64,000 nt of DNA. Origin: a virus. Lineage: Duplodnaviria > Caudoviricetes. Positions 5,159-54,139 of this stretch are shown here, piece by piece. The DNA lies in IMG/VR virus record IMGVR_UViG_3300006145_000004, positions 1-64,000 of that record; one strand, given 5' to 3'. Positions within the stretch are counted from its first letter, which is position 1; every line of letters starts with the position of its first letter. The notes under the pieces were generated by a model. That model saw only the letters and a program-made list of their open reading frames with translations, did not search any database and had not been told where the DNA came from. The position numbers and the translations under genes are program-made.

Positions 5159-5230
5159 GGATTTATAACTCTATTGGAGAGTAATCAGTTTTAAGATAAC
5201 AGATTTTGGGTTCAAGTCCCAATAAATCTT
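5159..5230 (+). tRNA. tRNA-like element/pseudo-tRNA with broken anticodon stem
   Basis: acceptor GGATTTA/TAAATCT, D-stem ACTC/GAGT, T-arm TTGGG-TTCAAGT-CCCAA at canonical spacing; anticodon stem ATCAG/ATAAC pairs 2 of 5. Confidence 0.7.
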
Positions 5231-14900: not shown

Positions 14901-14958
14901 AGAAGGGGATAAGGAGGCTTTTATATAAAGTAAATCATGAATTTCCTCCTAATTTTAT
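14901..14958 (+). promoter_or_regulatory. Twin-palindrome leader, copy 1
   Basis: AGGAGG...TATATA-7-TCATGA...CCTCCT-8-ATG. Confidence 0.7.
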
Positions 14959-15651
14959 ATGAATTTATATAATGATGATTGTTTTAAAGTAATGAAAATG
15001 TTAATCAACCAGAAATTAAAAGTGGATGCAATAATTTGCGATCCTCCATATATAATCAATTATACTGATTGGGATAAAGAGTTTGATATGCCTATGGTAG
15101 TAGACTTATCATATGAATTATTAAAAGATAATGGAAATTTAATATTATTTCAAGGATGGTCTAATGTTGCTAAAACAAAAGAGTTATTAGATAAAAAGTT
15201 TAATATTCAAAATTGGATAGTATGGGATCGTATTAAAGGACGTGGTGCAAAGAAAAATTTTGTATCAACAAGAGAAGATATTTTATGGTATTGTAAAGGT
15301 AATAATCCTACATATAATAAAATTTATTCTAATATACCTAAGAAAACTGGAGGAATGGGAAAGAAAAATGGGCAAGAATGTAGAGCATTAACTAATGTAT
15401 GGTATGATATTTCACCAATTGTTCCATGGAGTCCCGAAAGAAATGGTCATCCAACTCAAAAGCCATTACAGTTAATGGAAAGATGTATAACTATCTGGAC
15501 TAATGAAGGAGATATGATTTTAGATTTTACTATGGGGAGTGGAACAACTGGTGTTGCTGCATTAAAGCTTAGTAGAAACTTTATAGGAATTGAAAATGAT
15601 AAAGAATGGTTTGATATTTCTAAAAAGAGAATGGAAAGCTTATTTTATTGA
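14959..15651 (+). CDS. DNA N6A/N4C methyltransferase (beta class)
   Basis: DPPY near N-terminus, HPTQKP, LDFTMGSGTTG. Confidence 0.92.
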   Translation: MNLYNDDCFKVMKMLINQKLKVDAIICDPPYIINYTDWDKEFDMPMVVDLSYELLKDNGNLILFQGWSNVAKTKELLDKKFNIQNWIVWDRIKGRGAKKNFVSTREDILWYCKGNNPTYNKIYSNIPKKTGGMGKKNGQECRALTNVWYDISPIVPWSPERNGHPTQKPLQLMERCITIWTNEGDMILDFTMGSGTTGVAALKLSRNFIGIENDKEWFDISKKRMESLFY

Positions 15652-20598: not shown

Positions 20599-22242
20599 GT
20601 GAGCATGAAAACAAGAAGGTTCAGATTAACAAAGACAGCGAAAATTTTGATTATGTTATTGTTGATTACTATGATTGGAGGTGGAGTTTATTATGGAATA
20701 AGCTCAGGCATTATTAGAACTGAAACAGAAAAAATTAATAGACTAGCTAGTAGTGAGTCTCAAAAAAATGCAGAAGTGACAAACCTAAATACAGCTACGA
20801 ATAATGCATCTATTCCAGATAAAGATGGAAATATCATCAATACTAATAAGTCTTCAACCTCAACTATCAATGTATCTCTTGATGAATGGATAGGTTGGAA
20901 GCCCATTATTGATGCAAATGGTGGATTATCAACAGAAAAGGGGTCTATTTATGATAAGTTAGGTATTACTGTAAATATCAGTGTAATAAATGATGCTACT
21001 CAATCTAGTAATGCACTTATTAGCGGAAAATTAGATGCCGCTGGTTATACCATAAATCGTGTAGCATTTTTGTCTAATAAATTTAAAGAGGCTGGAAATG
21101 ATGTAATTATGCCTTATATTACAAATTTTTCAAATGGCGGTGATGGTATTATTGCTAAATCTAATATTACAAAAATTACTGATTTAGTAGGTGCTAAGAT
21201 TGGAGTTCCTCAATTTTCAGAAGCCCATTCATTGATAGTATGGTTTGTTAATCAGTCTGATTTATCTAAAGATAAAAAACAGAATATTATTGATGAGCTT
21301 ATCTTCTTTGAAACTCCAGATGAAGCTGCTAAAGCATTTTTTACAGGAAGTGTAGATGTAGCTGCAACTTGGGAACCCTATTTGACTCAAGCTCAGAATA
21401 TGAGTGATGCACATATATTATTTAGCACAGCAAGTTCTACAAGTCTTATTATGGATGGTATTCTTTTTAATAAGTCTTTTGCAGAGAAGAATCCGGATCT
21501 TGTTACTAAATTTATTGATGGAGCATTACAGGCAAATGATATGTATGATACTGAACTTAGCACTATTAAAAAAGTTATGCCTATGTTCGCTACAGCTTCG
21601 GATGAAGATGTCAAAGATAATTGTTCAGGTGCTAGGCTAATGACTTATACCGATAATCTTTCAATGTTTAATGGTACAGCAAGAACTATATATGTTGGTA
21701 TGTGTGATGTATGGAGTTCTATTGGTGAAAGTGTTAATAGAGAATTAGTTAATACCTTGTATGATGATACTTATATTAAAGCTTTGGCAGATAAGTATTC
21801 TGACCAACCTATTACAAAAACAGAAGCTATGGTTACAGTAAATGAGAATAACAGGCAAAGTGTATTAGATGCAGAAGCTTTGCTTGAAAAATCTGCAACT
21901 GTGAATTTTGTAATCAATACAGCTAAATTTTCCGATAGTGTAGAAGCTACCCAGAAGTTGAATGAATTTATTGAGATTGCAAAAGTATTAGATGGAACTA
22001 TTATTGAGATTGAAGGAAACACTGATCCAAACCCAAACACAGATCCTGATGATAAAGCAAATAAAATGTTATCTCAACAACGTGCAGAAACAGTAAAGCA
22101 ATATTTCATTCTAAATGGCATTTCGGCTGACAGAATTATTTCTGTAGGTAATGGATCAAGTAATCCTATTGTAGAAAATGATACGGAAGAACATCGTGCA
22201 ATGAATAGAAGAACAGATGTATCTTTTAAAATCATTGAATAG
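20599..22242 (+). CDS. Substrate-binding protein (NMT1/THI5-like) with C-terminal OmpA peptidoglycan-binding domain
   Basis: SNGGDGII, VDVAATWEPYL; IEIEGNTD, LSQQRAETVKQY, NRRTD. Confidence 0.85.
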   Translation: MSMKTRRFRLTKTAKILIMLLLITMIGGGVYYGISSGIIRTETEKINRLASSESQKNAEVTNLNTATNNASIPDKDGNIINTNKSSTSTINVSLDEWIGWKPIIDANGGLSTEKGSIYDKLGITVNISVINDATQSSNALISGKLDAAGYTINRVAFLSNKFKEAGNDVIMPYITNFSNGGDGIIAKSNITKITDLVGAKIGVPQFSEAHSLIVWFVNQSDLSKDKKQNIIDELIFFETPDEAAKAFFTGSVDVAATWEPYLTQAQNMSDAHILFSTASSTSLIMDGILFNKSFAEKNPDLVTKFIDGALQANDMYDTELSTIKKVMPMFATASDEDVKDNCSGARLMTYTDNLSMFNGTARTIYVGMCDVWSSIGESVNRELVNTLYDDTYIKALADKYSDQPITKTEAMVTVNENNRQSVLDAEALLEKSATVNFVINTAKFSDSVEATQKLNEFIEIAKVLDGTIIEIEGNTDPNPNTDPDDKANKMLSQQRAETVKQYFILNGISADRIISVGNGSSNPIVENDTEEHRAMNRRTDVSFKIIE

Positions 22243-22335: not shown

Positions 22336-22436
22336 AAGATTATGCTTTGTGTGGTGTCATAGCCACACAGGGTATTTCAAGACTATTTATAACCTGTAAA
22401 TTAGTTAATAAATAATCTATTTTAATATAAAAATAC

Positions 22437-22492
22437 AGAAAGGAAAAGGGTGTTGCAACCGTAAGATGATCATGCCTTTCTGGTAAAAATAT
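22437..22492 (+). promoter_or_regulatory. Twin-palindrome leader, copy 2
   Basis: AGAAAGG...TTGCAA-8-TGATCA...CCTTTCT...TTG. Confidence 0.7.
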
Positions 22493-23332: not shown

Positions 23333-23388
23333 TAGGAGGAAATGAGGTTTGTGCGCACAAGAAATCATGATTTACTCCTAAGCAAAGA
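23333..23388 (+). promoter_or_regulatory. Twin-palindrome leader, copy 3
   Basis: TAGGAG...TTGTGCGCACAA-G-AAATCATGATTT-A-CTCCTA...TTG. Confidence 0.75.
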
Positions 23389-24604: not shown

Positions 24605-24745
24605 ATGATATACACAAGTTACTTCGTAAAGTTAAAAGAGTTAGAAAGACCTAATATTATCCCAATATCAATTTGCAGTAAAGTACCAGATTGGTATAAA
24701 GGATTACAGTACAAGAGGCTAGATCCGAAATATGAATTAATGTAG
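24605..24745 (+). pseudogene. Truncated DUF488-like gene
   Basis: MIYTSYF...PISICSKVPDWYKGLQYKRLDPK then stop. Confidence 0.45.
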
Positions 24746-24800
24746 AAAGGATAAATTAGTAGCTAGCTTTAAAGGTTGCAACCGCTTTAGGTACTAATTA
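24744..24800 (+). promoter_or_regulatory. Twin-palindrome leader, copy 4
   Basis: AGAAAGG-ATA-AATTAGTA-GCTAGC-8-TTGCAA...TACTAATT-A-TTG. Confidence 0.65.
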
Positions 24801-25614
24801 TTGAAAAACAATACTATATTACCTCCATGTTCATATCAGGGAGGTAAACAAAGAGTTTCAAAAGAAATTGTTGACTATATTTTAAGTACTACAACATTTA
24901 ATGATAGCACAAAATTTTTCGATTTATGTAGTGATTCAGGTGCTATTAGCCTTGAACTAATGAACAGAGGTATTAAGCCAGAAAATATTATTATAGATGA
25001 TTGGAGATGGTAGCTTTTTATATAAAAAGTTTTTAACATATGCAGATATAGTTCCAAGAGATAAAACAAAAATACAAAAATATATTAAAGAATTATCAAA
25101 AGAAAATGCAGATATAGATGAGTGTTATAAATATATTTTATTACAAGCAGCATCATTTGGTGGTAAACAAATTTGGAAGGAAAATAACGAATGGAAAAAT
25201 ACGTCATTTAGAAATTATTGGCAACCAACAGCTACAAGTAAAAGGAGAAGTCCTGTTAATCCAATGCAACCTATGATAGATATTTTATGTAAAAGAATAA
25301 AAGTTATTTCTGAAAAGTGTATTGGAATTCAGTGTATTTATGATGACATTTGGACTATATTGCAAATTATACCAACGGAAAATTGTATTATATACATAGA
25401 TCCACCATATTATAATAGTACAAAATATGGTTTTAATTTTAACTTGAATGATTTTTTAGGTGAATTATTTCAAAAAACATTAAGTCCTATATTTGTATCT
25501 GAAAAGGAAAAAATTTCGGAGGAGGCAATTAAACTAAATTTTAATGGAGATAAAGGAGGAATTAGCAGAAATAAGAAATGTAAAAATGAAGAATGGTTAA
25601 ATATATATCGATAG
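24801..25614 (+). pseudogene. Frameshifted D12-like adenine methyltransferase
   Basis: YQGGKQR and DLCSDSG in one frame, YIDPPY in another; break near 25000. Confidence 0.75.
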
Positions 25615-25710: not shown

Positions 25711-25765
25711 TAGGAGGTAAAGAGGTTTGTCATGACAGAAAAGTGCACTTTACTTCTGAATTATA
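25711..25765 (+). promoter_or_regulatory. Twin-palindrome leader, copy 5
   Basis: TAGGAGG...TGTCATGACA-GA-AAAGTGCACTTT-ACTTCT...TTG. Confidence 0.75.
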
Positions 25766-26941
25766 TTGAAAATAGCAATTATAGATGCAGATTTAATAAG
25801 TAGGAGTAATCATAGATTCCCAAACTTAGTTTGTATGAAATTGTCAGGTTATTATAAAGAACTTGGTGCTAAAGTGGAACTGAAAATAGACTATAAAGAC
25901 TTACTAGGATATGACAAAGTATTTATTTCTAAAATATTTACTGATACACCAATAGATGAGAAAATTTTGGAATTTCCAAATGTAGAATATGGGGGTACAG
26001 GATTCTTTTATGATAAAGCTCCAAAGCTTCTTGATGAAGTAGAGCATCATATGCCAGATTATCATTTATATGATAAGTGGGTAAATGAAAAATTAAAAGA
26101 GGGTCATAAAAGGAAAGATTTTTCTTATTATCTTGATTGGTCAATAGGTTTTCTTTCAAGGGGTTGTATTAGACAATGTAGTTTCTGTGTAAATAAAAAT
26201 TACAAATCGTGTGAAGTACATAGTAATTTATCAGAATTTCTTGATAATGATAGACCTTATATATGCTTACTTGATGACAATGTATTAGCATGTAAAGATT
26301 GGAGAAGTATATTTGAGGAACTCATTGCAACTGGTAAGAAATTTCAGTTTAAACAAGGTTGTGATGAGAGACTTTTGACAGATGAAAAATGTGAAATACT
26401 GTTTAATAAGTCAAAATGGATTGGTGATAGAATATTTGCATTTGATAATATTAAAGATAGAGAGATAATAGAGAAAAAGCTTCATATGATAAGGAAATAT
26501 ACTAATAATCAAATTAAATTCTATACATTTTGTGGTTATAATCATGACAACATAGGAGTTTATGATGAGGAGTTCTGGGTAAAAGATATAGAAGATTTAT
26601 TTGAACGAATTAAGATTCTAATGACCTACGGGTGTCTACCATATGTAATGAGATTTAAAGATTATGTTCTAAGTCCATATAAAGGAATTTATATCAATGC
26701 TGCAAGTTGGTGTAATCAGCCCAGTTTATTCCGTAAAATGAGTTTTGCTGAATATAGTATGGCAAGGGGTATGAGTAATAAAAATTATAAGAAGTATAAA
26801 ATGGATTTTGATTCATACCTAGCAGATGGTAATAAAAAAGGTTCATCGTGGAGATATTATGAAAAGTTTTTGAGTAAATATCCTGAGATAGCAGAGAAGT
26901 ATTTTCATATGAAGTGGAATTATTCCAATAGGAACAGTTAA
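25766..26941 (+). CDS. Radical SAM enzyme
   Basis: SRGCIRQCSFC; N-terminal IAIIDAD...FPNL..MKLSGYYK; LLDDN. Confidence 0.8.
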   Translation: MKIAIIDADLISRSNHRFPNLVCMKLSGYYKELGAKVELKIDYKDLLGYDKVFISKIFTDTPIDEKILEFPNVEYGGTGFFYDKAPKLLDEVEHHMPDYHLYDKWVNEKLKEGHKRKDFSYYLDWSIGFLSRGCIRQCSFCVNKNYKSCEVHSNLSEFLDNDRPYICLLDDNVLACKDWRSIFEELIATGKKFQFKQGCDERLLTDEKCEILFNKSKWIGDRIFAFDNIKDREIIEKKLHMIRKYTNNQIKFYTFCGYNHDNIGVYDEEFWVKDIEDLFERIKILMTYGCLPYVMRFKDYVLSPYKGIYINAASWCNQPSLFRKMSFAEYSMARGMSNKNYKKYKMDFDSYLADGNKKGSSWRYYEKFLSKYPEIAEKYFHMKWNYSNRNS

Positions 26942-27132
26942 GAGGTACATAAAATTTTGGAGATTAAAAAGTATTATATATTGGAAATTGAAAACGATTT
27001 TGGAAGAATTTTTGTTAGAGAAAGCGACTTAAAGAATTATCCAATGATTGCAGTATAATAAATTCAGAATTGATATTTTAGAGAGGAAAATAAAGCGTAG
27101 ATATTTAATTGAAATACCTACTTTTACTGATA

Positions 27133-48466: not shown

Positions 48467-48907
48467 ATGAGAGAGAAGAACTATATTGTAAATCCTGAAA
48501 AAAAGATTGTTGTAGCAATATTAAAAGCTAATACTGATAGTGTAGATGATATGAAAGGTATTGCAGATGAAGTTATTAGGGAGTGTTCAAGAACTACGAT
48601 TTATGCAATACTTGAGTTAATAGAAAAAGCTGGTGATTTTCATATGTCGAATTTAGATATTCCATATGAAGTATTATACAAAGGAATTGCAAAATGTGAT
48701 GAGCATGATGAATTTACTGAAGAAATTGGGAAAAAGATTGCCGGAAATAAAGCAGAAATGAAATATCATATTGCTATGGCAAAAAAATATAAAGTACTTG
48801 TATCGCTTATTGAAAAGGCTTATGAGGAATTATATGTCTTAGAATGTAAACATGCAAATAAGGCTTTAAAAATTAACAACAATATTAAAAAATATACTGA
48901 AAGATAA
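48467..48907 (+). CDS. Hypothetical phage protein
   Basis: GIAKCDEHDEFTEEIGKKIA. Confidence 0.6.
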   Translation: MREKNYIVNPEKKIVVAILKANTDSVDDMKGIADEVIRECSRTTIYAILELIEKAGDFHMSNLDIPYEVLYKGIAKCDEHDEFTEEIGKKIAGNKAEMKYHIAMAKKYKVLVSLIEKAYEELYVLECKHANKALKINNNIKKYTER

Positions 48908-48982
48908 TTGTAATATATGTAAGTATTACTGAAGTAAATACTAAAATCTCATTTTTAACAGTAAAGTAAAAATACATAATGA

Positions 48983-49035
48983 AAGGGGAACAGAACTCTG
49001 GCCAGAGTGATGACATGTCAGTTCTCTCTTAAAAG
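48983..49035 (+). promoter_or_regulatory. Twin-palindrome leader, copy 7
   Basis: AAGGGG...ACTCTGGCCAGAGT-GA-TGACATGTCA-GTTCTCTCTT...ATG. Confidence 0.75.
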
Positions 49036-49803
49036 ATGGAGTCAATTAAAAACTATGATGTTTATATAAATGGAATGAGAAAATCTTTAAAAGATAAATT
49101 ATTTTTTATGAATATGACTGAAGCTGTTGATACCCTGATAGATTTTGGATGTGCGGATGGGGAATTATTAAAAGAAGTACATCAAAAATTTCCACAGTAT
49201 AGATTGATTGGAATAGATTCTGATCGAGTTATGTTGGAAAGAGCAACAAATAAGGTTTCAAACCTTTTAATAATAAAACAAAGAGGATTACCAAAACTTT
49301 CGATAGAATTAGCTCAAAATGCTATTTTAAATATGAGTAGTATAATTCATGAAATTTATACATATTCCAATAAATACGAAATTTCAGATTTCTGGCATAA
49401 TGTATTTAATACTGGATATAAATATATTTCAATTCGTGATTTGATGATGGGCAAAAAGTCCTATAGATTTGCTCAACAATTAGAAATTGAAGCTATTAAA
49501 CAGAAAATAGATAAAATCCAATTAGAAGATTTTATAAAGCAGTGGGGTGATATAAAAACTGAAAGTTCTCTTATTCATCTTCTTTTAAAATATAGATATA
49601 AAGAAAATTGGGAAAGAGAAGTGAAAGAGAATTATTTTCCAATTACTGTTGAGGAGTTTTTGAGTATCATTCCAACCAATCAATATAAAATTATCTATTT
49701 TGATCATTATATGCTACCATTTAATAAAGAACAAATATGGAAAGATTTCGGAATTAAATTAAAGGATAATACACATATGAAAATTTTACTTGAAAGAATA
49801 TAG
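49036..49803 (+). CDS. Class I SAM-dependent methyltransferase
   Basis: LIDFGCADG, LIGID, SSIIHEIY. Confidence 0.8.
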   Translation: MESIKNYDVYINGMRKSLKDKLFFMNMTEAVDTLIDFGCADGELLKEVHQKFPQYRLIGIDSDRVMLERATNKVSNLLIIKQRGLPKLSIELAQNAILNMSSIIHEIYTYSNKYEISDFWHNVFNTGYKYISIRDLMMGKKSYRFAQQLEIEAIKQKIDKIQLEDFIKQWGDIKTESSLIHLLLKYRYKENWEREVKENYFPITVEEFLSIIPTNQYKIIYFDHYMLPFNKEQIWKDFGIKLKDNTHMKILLERI

Positions 49804-49860: not shown

Positions 49861-50091
49861 ATGAAGATACAATTAAATACAATAGCTAACGCAAATAATT
49901 TTGTATCAATATGCAGTAAATATTATAATGCTGATATTGATGTAAAACAGGGAAAACAAATAACAAGTGGTAAAAGTATACTTGGTATATATAGTTTAGA
50001 TTTATTAAATGCCATATTTGTTACAATATGTACAGATAATATGAAAATGGTAAGAGAATTCTATTCTAAAATTCATGAGTGGGAAGTATGA
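49861..50091 (+). CDS. HPr-like protein
   Basis: FVSICSKY..DIDV...SGKSILGIYSL; no His15 equivalent. Confidence 0.65.
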   Translation: MKIQLNTIANANNFVSICSKYYNADIDVKQGKQITSGKSILGIYSLDLLNAIFVTICTDNMKMVREFYSKIHEWEV

Positions 50092-54031: not shown

Positions 54032-54139
54032 ATAAAAATAATAAAATAATCTTTTATGGTTGCAAACATAAAAGTTAAGATAAAGTTATAAATTGGATAC
54101 CGGTATCCTTCTGAAATAAAAAATCAGAAGGAGTATTTT

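Follow-up and report, generated by a model that had tools for sequence, protein, structure and literature searches.

Phage methyltransferases decide whether a phage survives under host restriction, and the control of their expression is largely obscure. Among described control elements, 5' leaders that sequester the Shine-Dalgarno (SD) box (translational operators, RNA thermometers, riboswitch platforms) resemble the element reported here in that they act in cis, are oriented with the gene and hold a paired box near its start. Genes 38 and 25 of phage T4 have split ribosome-binding sites that are bridged by a hairpin. Restriction-modification genes are controlled through the C-box operators of C proteins and through CfrBI-type methylation-sensitive promoters, in which the methyltransferase promoter holds its own site. 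Moreover, T4-type phages carry PeSL cassettes, which according to the available text flank accessory genes as modular shuffling points and combine a strong promoter with a terminator stem-loop (Arbiol et al. 2010, PMC2839356). Finally, in the available text on retroviral dimer initiation sites, palindromic hairpin loops serve as RNA dimerisation signals (PMC7357161).

Here we describe a 54-base leader at positions 48982–49035 of a 64,000-nucleotide (nt) window, the first 64 kb of IMG/VR record IMGVR_UViG_3300006145_000004, a caudoviricete phage. This leader presents a ribosome-binding-like box, two perfect palindromes, a pyrimidine stretch complementary to the box and then the ATG of open reading frame (ORF) 49036, which encodes a putative S-adenosylmethionine (SAM)-dependent enzyme. 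The full record (122,368 base pairs (bp), 28.8% G+C, rated ~65% complete) is contained in mouse-gut DNA sequencing runs. It holds six leaders that are alike in layout and different in sequence, all of them before genes of SAM-dependent enzymes. The leader is apparently an undescribed control element that precedes DNA-modification genes in many phages of Gram-positive gut bacteria (Firmicutes phages).

Leaders before SAM-dependent enzyme genes in one phage

The leader before ORF 49036 is built from the following parts:

Stop of ORF 48467–48907 to ATG 49036: intergenic span
48982–48988, + strand: AAAGGGG, ribosome-binding-like purine box, 5' strand of the outer closing helix
48995–49008, + strand: palindrome 1, ACTCTGGCCAGAGT, 14 bp, perfect, centre GGCC
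49011–49020, + strand: palindrome 2, TGACATGTCA, 10 bp, perfect, centre CATG, 2 nt after palindrome 1
49021–49030, + strand: pyrimidine 3' strand, GTTCTCTCTT, followed by AAAAG and then ATG 49036
48979–49032, + strand: short 17-codon upstream frame in the same phase as the gene, its stop one codon before the ATG
49036–49803, + strand: class I SAM-dependent methyltransferase ORF (assigned by predicted fold), 255 amino acids

Within the leader, GTTCT pairs with AGAAC (48992–48996) and CTCTT pairs with AAGGG (one G.U); the closing helix scored in the composite test described below, GGGGAAC/GTTCTCT, has seven pairs and is also present in the minimum-energy fold. AAAGGGG is the sole ribosome-binding-like box within 60 nt of ATG 49036, no second one having been found there, and no SD-like word lies 4–16 nt upstream of that ATG, which we take to be the true start because homologues align from residue 1–4. 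The short upstream frame lacks a separate ribosome-binding site, and the other leaders do not conserve it. All the elements of the family layout are present: a purine box, tandem palindromes of 8–14 bp placed 1–6 nt apart, a closing helix and SAM-enzyme cargo. This leader lacks the words of the common sub-type (GAGGTTTG ... TTTACTCCT, with 9–10 nt to the start) and has 5 nt to the start instead.

The five other leaders of the phage are these:

14905–14958, + strand: leader of the N6/N4 DNA methyltransferase gene (14959–15651); GGAGG 14913–14917, TTTATATAAA 14920–14929, TCATGA 14935–14940, CCTCC 14945–14949, 9 nt to ATG
22436–22492, + strand: leader of D12 methyltransferase ORF 22493 (start TTG); CAGAAAGG 22436–22443, GTTGCAAC 22452–22459, ATGATCAT 22466–22473, CCTTTCTG 22475–22482
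23333–23388, + strand: leader of D12 methyltransferase ORF 23389 (start TTG); TAGGAGG 23333–23339, TTGTGCGCACAA 23349–23360, AAATCATGATTT 23362–23373, CTCCTA 23375–23380
24744–24800, + strand: leader of the split D12-like methyltransferase gene (24801–25013 and 24997–25614; start TTG); AGAAAGGA directly after a TAG stop, AGCTAGCT 24761–24768, GGTTGCAACC 24774–24783
25711–25765, + strand: leader of radical SAM ORF 25766 (start TTG); TAGGAGGTAAAG 25711–25722, TGTCATGACA 25728–25737, AAAGTGCACTTT 25740–25751, CTTTACTTCT 25748–25757

The cargo therefore comprises the N6/N4 DNA methyltransferase (found by a whole-record search with Pfam PF01555), three D12 DNA methyltransferases, the radical SAM enzyme and the class I methyltransferase. 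Four of the six leaders end at the weak start codon TTG. The SD box of the leaders is 45–55 nt 5' of the start, and the anti-SD stretch ends 1–11 nt before it; in leader 24744 the TTG comes 1 nt after the closing helix, AATTAGTA/TACTAATT. Tandem G+C-containing palindromes stand directly 5' of an ORF at five places (22452/22466, 23349/23362, 24761/24774, 25728/25740 and 48995/49011), and the common sub-type is represented in this phage by leaders 23333 and 25711 only. Eight SAM-dependent enzyme genes were identified in the phage, six of them with a leader; the whole-record methyltransferase search covered four families, and more SAM enzymes are possible beyond 64 kb.

The likelihood of chance resemblance was gauged with a composite test: a closing helix of at least six pairs with a ribosome-binding-like word, spanning at least one palindrome of 8 bp, no more than 75 nt 5' of an ORF. 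Five of the 220 ORFs of at least 60 amino acids in the 122-kb record pass (14959, 22493, 23389, 25766 and 49036), compared with 2.0 ± 1.4 passes in 40 shuffles of the upstream regions; when at least two palindromes are required, three are observed versus 0.25 in shuffles (maximum 2). All five matches are genes of SAM-dependent enzymes, and all five lack an SD-like word 4–16 nt before the start. The test misses leader 24744 (ORF 24801) because its closing helix adjoins the SD box instead of including the ribosome-binding word. The genome as a whole strongly avoids palindromes of at least 8 bp (276, versus 441 ± 16 simulated), and it has 8 tandem palindrome pairs versus 14.1 ± 4.0 in second-order Markov simulations. 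Also avoided genome-wide are GATC, GGCC, GCGC, CTAG, CCGG and CGCG (observed/expected 0.27–0.54), and CTGCAG, CAGCTG, ACTAGT and TTCGAA have zero copies in the record, with 10–18 expected. The count alone is a modest signal, and leader 48982 taken singly is a weak case; what chance does not account for is that the matches all fall on one functional class and that the element is conserved in other phages.

The original prediction had described this layout at 48983–49803, some 21 kb from a methyltransferase cluster and among nucleotide-metabolism genes. Palindromes, box, pyrimidine stretch and ATG were all found in place, and the setting is as described: the methyltransferase cluster is 21–26 kb upstream of ORF 49036, whose neighbours are a ligase (45281), ThyX (46652), a guanylate-kinase-like protein (47348), a deoxyribosyltransferase-like protein (47975), NrdD (50253) and NrdG (52473). 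Directly after the methyltransferase gene is a 76-amino-acid ORF (49861–50091) with a weak match to HPr phosphocarrier (E 5e-4, below cut-off).

Several other features of the record are worth recording. The two overlapping frames of the split D12-like gene match phrog_56 positions 57–113 and 172–262, and the split may stem from a frameshift, from an error in sequencing or from programmed slippage. No close relatives of D12 gene 23389 were found in IMG/VR. Upstream of the MT-A70 gene at 27109 (27050–27108), a box is placed ~20 nt before the TTG, across a weak A/T hairpin (AAATA ... TATTT); this region may be a reduced form of the leader. Just 5' of the methyltransferase cluster, positions 20599–22242 encode a 547-amino-acid protein with an NMT1/THI5-like periplasmic binding domain and a C-terminal OmpA domain, an unusual cargo for a phage. 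At 54095–54139, a hairpin (CCTTCTGA ... TCAGAAGG) comes after a 14-bp palindrome (GGATACCGGTATCC) and pairs the ribosome-binding box of the cell-wall hydrolase gene 54140; by its sequence it looks like a normal sequestering hairpin, its parts in the customary order. Near the end of the record, beyond the window, three copies of TCTTGTACAAGA or TTGTACAA occur within 70 bp (121627–121693) and look like an operator array.

The leader family in other phages and its cargo enzymes

A scan of IMG/VR with a pattern derived from the common scaffold gave at least 120 loci. Together with the window and the radical SAM loci, it yielded at least 66 matches with an SD box, which represent at least 53 distinct sequences; two of these were dropped as chance matches with no palindrome, and 51 were kept. 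CTCC stands 9–10 nt from the start throughout the common sub-type, as read from the leader list. Among the matches listed, Pfam identifies methyltransferases as cargo in 16 of 20 representatives (8 C5, 3 D12, 2 N6_Mtase, 2 N6_N4, 1 Methyltransf_11), and with two added by PHROGs the figure is 18 of 21 representative types, L213 included; the non-methyltransferase cargo is one sigma factor and two zinc-ribbon proteins. The original prediction held that the link follows SAM use or modification function rather than local duplication. The functional link stands, in that the layout recurs without shared sequence at six SAM-enzyme genes; 'SAM use' is too broad, and DNA modification fits better because the cargo in other phages consists of DNA methyltransferases of every class, with the sigma factor and zinc-ribbon proteins as exceptions. 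In a pattern scan of the genome collection, 4 of 120 among the matches listed are true leaders, and the rest are mostly chance.

Twenty Enterococcus phage records carry the leader before annotated methyltransferase genes (phiFL1A/B/C, phiFL2, phiFL3, EFC-1 and phiEf11 among them), and in these records the leader itself is unannotated. There is one copy per genome in five of five Enterococcus-type records, and prophage loci with unrelated flanks share the 53–58-nt leader alone, at 98% identity. The leader matches no Rfam 15 family at gathering score; relaxing the search over the leaders to E up to 1 and up to 10 returned nothing but chance matches to snoRNA, intron and thermometer families, all well short of threshold. 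The sole Rfam match in the window is a transfer RNA gene (5159–5230, 41.8 bits). At L099 (4747–6305) and ~20 related IMG/VR loci, the leader precedes the gene of a 203-amino-acid double-zinc-ribbon protein, with an N6_N4 methyltransferase two genes on. The Tn916-type excisionase and integrase near loci of this type suggest that the leader may also occur on integrative elements; when searched by BLAST, cultured phages and plasmids gave no match to the zinc-ribbon-type leader.

The radical SAM protein (25766–26941) has a C-x3-C-x2-C motif at residues 134–141 and an N-terminal Rossmann-like domain; it has no Pfam match, and its closest folds are the MiaB/RimO methylthiotransferases and cobalamin-dependent radical SAM methylases (template-modelling (TM) score ~0.45). 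The protein is common among phages, with 124 relatives confirmed in IMG/VR. Across 80 of the homologous loci in IMG/VR, 14 have leaders recognisable by eye, and 7 pass the composite test. The scaffold is constant in these loci and the palindromes are swapped: L038 has CTGCGCAG plus AAATCATGATTT, and L032 has AAAGTATACTTT where AAAGTGCACTTT stands in the window. Locus L027 carries a 24744-type leader, there before a radical SAM gene. Five relatives that also have the radical SAM gene yielded no homologue of the class I enzyme.

By fold, the model of the ORF 49036 product is that of a class I SAM-dependent methyltransferase: the AlphaFold2 prediction has a mean predicted local distance difference test (pLDDT) score of 94.7, and Foldseek aligns it to many class I enzymes with probability 1.0 and TM ~0.5. 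It shows the seven strands of the Rossmann-like fold, and an acidic residue comes after strand 2; its glycine-rich motif I (D-x-G-C-A) is invariant, and D36, G38, C39, A40 and D61 are fixed in 44 sequences. The class I SAM-enzyme fold that had been proposed from the sequence is thereby supported. Pfam families Methyltransf_25, _31, _12 and _23 all score below their curated cut-offs, 517 relatives (E ≤1e-5) are nearly all unnamed, and the closest solved folds are small-molecule and protein methyltransferases; neither Pfam nor PHROGs gave a DNA methyltransferase family for this protein. Methylation of a nucleotide or DNA base is a candidate activity, for which the neighbouring genes and the shared leader are the sole basis. 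Likewise, the sole argument that the radical SAM and class I enzymes may act on DNA or its precursors is that their leader is shared with DNA methyltransferases.

A further expectation of the original prediction, namely that homologous genes would carry the leader, did not hold. No leader was found at the class I homologues in three jumbo-phage records (0/3), in 11 IMG/VR loci (0/11), in 75 metagenome loci by the count of tandem pairs (0/75) or in 85 loci by the composite test (0/85); most of these homologues have an ordinary SD box 6–9 nt before the start. Because homologues lack it, the leader is a property of the phage regulon, acquired in its lineage, and not of the class I gene family.

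Proposed mechanism and competing explanations

We give roughly even chances to the proposal that the leaders are a translational gate in the messenger RNA (mRNA), one that works by pairing the only ribosome-binding box. The sole SD box, 45–55 nt upstream, would be tied up in a helix by a CUCC-like anti-SD stretch; this stretch would occupy the normal place of the ribosome-binding site before a weak start, and two short hairpins would be enclosed. Such a fold could keep the translation of modification enzymes, which may be required in small amounts only, low or conditional, as one regulon. We infer that the leader acts as RNA, that pairing limits ribosome access and that a trigger opens the helix. 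In the Enterococcus phages and at 24744, the leader directly adjoins the stop codon of the gene before it, so a terminating ribosome could melt the helix and pass to the start.

Several observations are consistent with pairing in the transcript. The closing helices of leaders 14905, 25711 and 48982 contain G.U pairs, which would be A.C mismatches on the opposite strand, and imperfect hairpin variants are of the G.U type in seven cases and of the A.C type in one. The positions flanking the searched core (−2/+2) are Watson-Crick in 35 of 51 leaders (T-A 22, A-T 13) and other in 16. When leaders of the sub-type are folded singly (n=49), the long SD:anti-SD closing helix is the minimum-energy structure in nearly all; their fold energies have a mean z of −1.85, with 23 of 49 below −2, and three of the five window leaders reach −2.8, −2.4 and −2.3.

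Other points weigh against the translational gate. Once opened, the SD box would be too distant from the start, and initiation is left unexplained. The leader is absent at MT-A70 27109 and at NrdG 52473, both SAM-dependent. The RNA fold energy of leader 48982 is close to that of its shuffles (z +0.74 over 101 nt, +0.15 over 68 nt). The sense-strand bias in wobble pairs is suggestive only, since transcription-linked C-to-T mutation could yield the same bias. RNAalifold found no consensus structure for the 51 leaders on a MAFFT alignment, which is not structure-aware and places the SD box and hairpin 1 differently from one sub-type to another; covariation in the 3' core of the sub-type cannot be judged, because the search pattern fixed that core. 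Short metatranscriptome contigs on 49554–49717 and elsewhere, which give no ends and no strand, were not used. There is also the symmetry: an RNA hairpin needs no self-complementary loop, and palindromy runs through the four central bases in all 17 distinct first hairpins and in 12 of 20 second hairpins. A tally over the listed palindromes finds 13 of the 16 palindromic tetranucleotides at hairpin centres. Such perfect symmetry is outside known mechanisms, the standard models of RNA regulation included.

Self-complementary tips might allow two copies of the message to zip into a long duplex, and the leaders would then be elements of mRNA self-dimerisation; we consider this unlikely. The duplex would bury the ribosome-binding box or attract double-strand ribonucleases, and as growing phage genome copy number raises the message concentration, the modification enzymes would be translated less. 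The computed homodimer gain is −15 to −21 kcal/mol in four of five window leaders, versus −7 ± 3 in shuffles; for leader 48982 it is −20.7 kcal/mol, matched by 0 of 100 shuffles. This gain is no proof for cells, because it follows from palindromy itself. No mRNA leader of bacteria or phages is known to us to operate by self-dimerisation; if true, dimerisation would be an RNA-only dosage governor and a novel type of gene control in bacteria or phages. Perfect dyad symmetry through the centre is also the signature of double-stranded sites read by dimers, and the palindrome centres are 4–6-bp words of the type II enzyme kind, as if they were operator sites or, for instance, methylation targets of phage or host methyltransferases, with a methylation state that sets the transcription of modification genes. 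GATC, GGCC, GCGC and CTAG, all of them in window leaders, are under-represented in the genome (observed/expected 0.42–0.53), and decayed variants show C-to-T within CCGG, as deamination of methylated cytosine would give. We nevertheless find control at the DNA level doubtful: in Enterococcus phages one identical leader (GTCGAC + GAATTC) precedes at least six methyltransferase families, so the sites do not track enzyme specificity, and in three Enterococcus-type genomes GTCGAC and GAATTC are neither avoided nor unique (2–5 and 11 copies each). The window leader 6-mers are not rare in the genome either, GCTAGC (one copy) excepted. Furthermore, six leaders of one phage have eleven different palindromes, more than a single regulator could serve; wobble pairs suit only the sense strand, and the search of the 122 kb turned up no C5 methyltransferase to act on GGCC or GCGC. 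The 15–20-nt spacing from the TTG of hairpin 1 to TTTACT is unlike that of a promoter; a promoter reading was itself rejected, as consensus scans placed no promoter-like or terminator-like site at the leaders. An A-rich word 5' of four leaders is common before other genes as well.

A portable junction, at which recombination would swap modification genes, is compatible with a role in expression; as an explanation of the leader, whose tie to methyltransferases would then mirror the cargo of that slot, we rate it improbable. It accords with the Enterococcus prophage loci, which have unrelated flanks and only the leader (98% identity) in common, with the single leader per genome and differing cargo in five of five records, with the frequent adjacency to an upstream stop codon and with the radical SAM family, which has two leader sub-types (that of L027 being the sub-type of the window's D12 gene); the PeSL cassettes of T4-type phages, as described in the available text (PMC2839356), offer a precedent. 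It is at odds with six copies in one phage that have no common sequence for recombination and with the missing terminator-like or promoter-like signal, and it leaves SD/anti-SD pairing, the fixed distance to the start and the missing local SD unexplained. Dispersed mobile hairpin repeats (REP/MITE-like), of which many nearly identical copies regardless of gene function would be expected, do not fit the six unlike copies, all at SAM-enzyme genes, or the one copy per genome in five of five Enterococcus-type records. A reading based on the short upstream frames, which every leader has, was rejected, as these frames conserve neither start nor length nor phase. A riboswitch for SAM or S-adenosylhomocysteine would tie enzyme synthesis to cofactor supply: SAM is used by all six cargo genes here and by 18 of 21 cargo types elsewhere, among the matches listed, and the pairing of the SD box recalls the expression platforms of several SAM riboswitch classes. 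We give this very little credence, since no Rfam family matches even at E up to 10 and a sigma factor and zinc-ribbon proteins also lie under the leader; moreover, with hypervariable hairpins and with junction bases that this phage's sub-types do not conserve, no plausible ligand pocket is left. Fortuitous palindromes and a fortuitous purine/pyrimidine pair at ORF 49036 alone are similarly most improbable. Such chance would account for a fold no better than shuffles, for the lack of sequence similarity to other leaders and for homologous genes without the leader, and shuffled upstream regions do pass the composite test about twice per genome. Yet three leaders with two palindromes pass where 0.25 per genome would be expected, every match is on a SAM-enzyme gene, no local SD precedes the start, which homologues confirm as such, and 14-bp and 10-bp G+C-containing palindromes stand 2 nt apart in a genome that avoids palindromes.

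Significance and comparison with described systems

One recognisable element that methyltransferases of the C5, N6 and N4 kinds have in common with a radical SAM enzyme and a class I methyltransferase would provide a handle on the control of these genes. It would also serve as a sequence flag for new DNA-modification genes, the candidates here being radical SAM 25766 and class I 49036. Enterococcus phages phiFL1-3, EFC-1 and phiEf11 offer cultured systems for its study.

A literature search for a two-palindrome methyltransferase leader returned nothing specific. In the available text, a catalogue of candidate phage RNAs reports four candidates 5' of N6-adenine methyltransferase genes and gives them no structure, name or function (PMC10690425); these candidates may overlap the leader family. 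The available text of a 224-motif survey contains no methyltransferase-specific motif (PMC5737381).

The phage leaders resemble PeSL cassettes in being the sole shared stretch between unrelated flanks; they differ in having no promoter or terminator signal, in having an SD box and in being tied to one class of cargo. With C-boxes they share two adjacent palindromes just 5' of a DNA-modification gene. However, the C-boxes of one system are alike and accompany a controller gene, whereas leader palindromes vary both inside one leader and from leader to leader, and the same leader can stand before enzymes of different classes. As in retroviral dimer initiation sites, the hairpin tip is self-complementary, a feature which there pairs the RNA with a second copy; unlike the retroviral dimers, those of the phage leaders are computed only.

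In comparison with SD-sequestering leaders, the order of parts is reversed in the phage leader: the box is ~50 nt upstream, and the anti-SD stretch is at the usual ribosome-binding place. Because that position is so occupied, melting the helix yields no usable site. The phage leader further differs in enclosing two perfectly palindromic inserts and in having no Rfam match. The split sites of T4 likewise have a structured insert between SD box and start, and folding joins the two, as in the phage leaders. Leader 24744 comes closest to them: its box is just outside the closing helix, and its start follows 1 nt after the helix. In contrast to the T4 sites, five of the six window leaders hold the box inside the helix, and the two-hairpin module is common to a class of genes across many phages.

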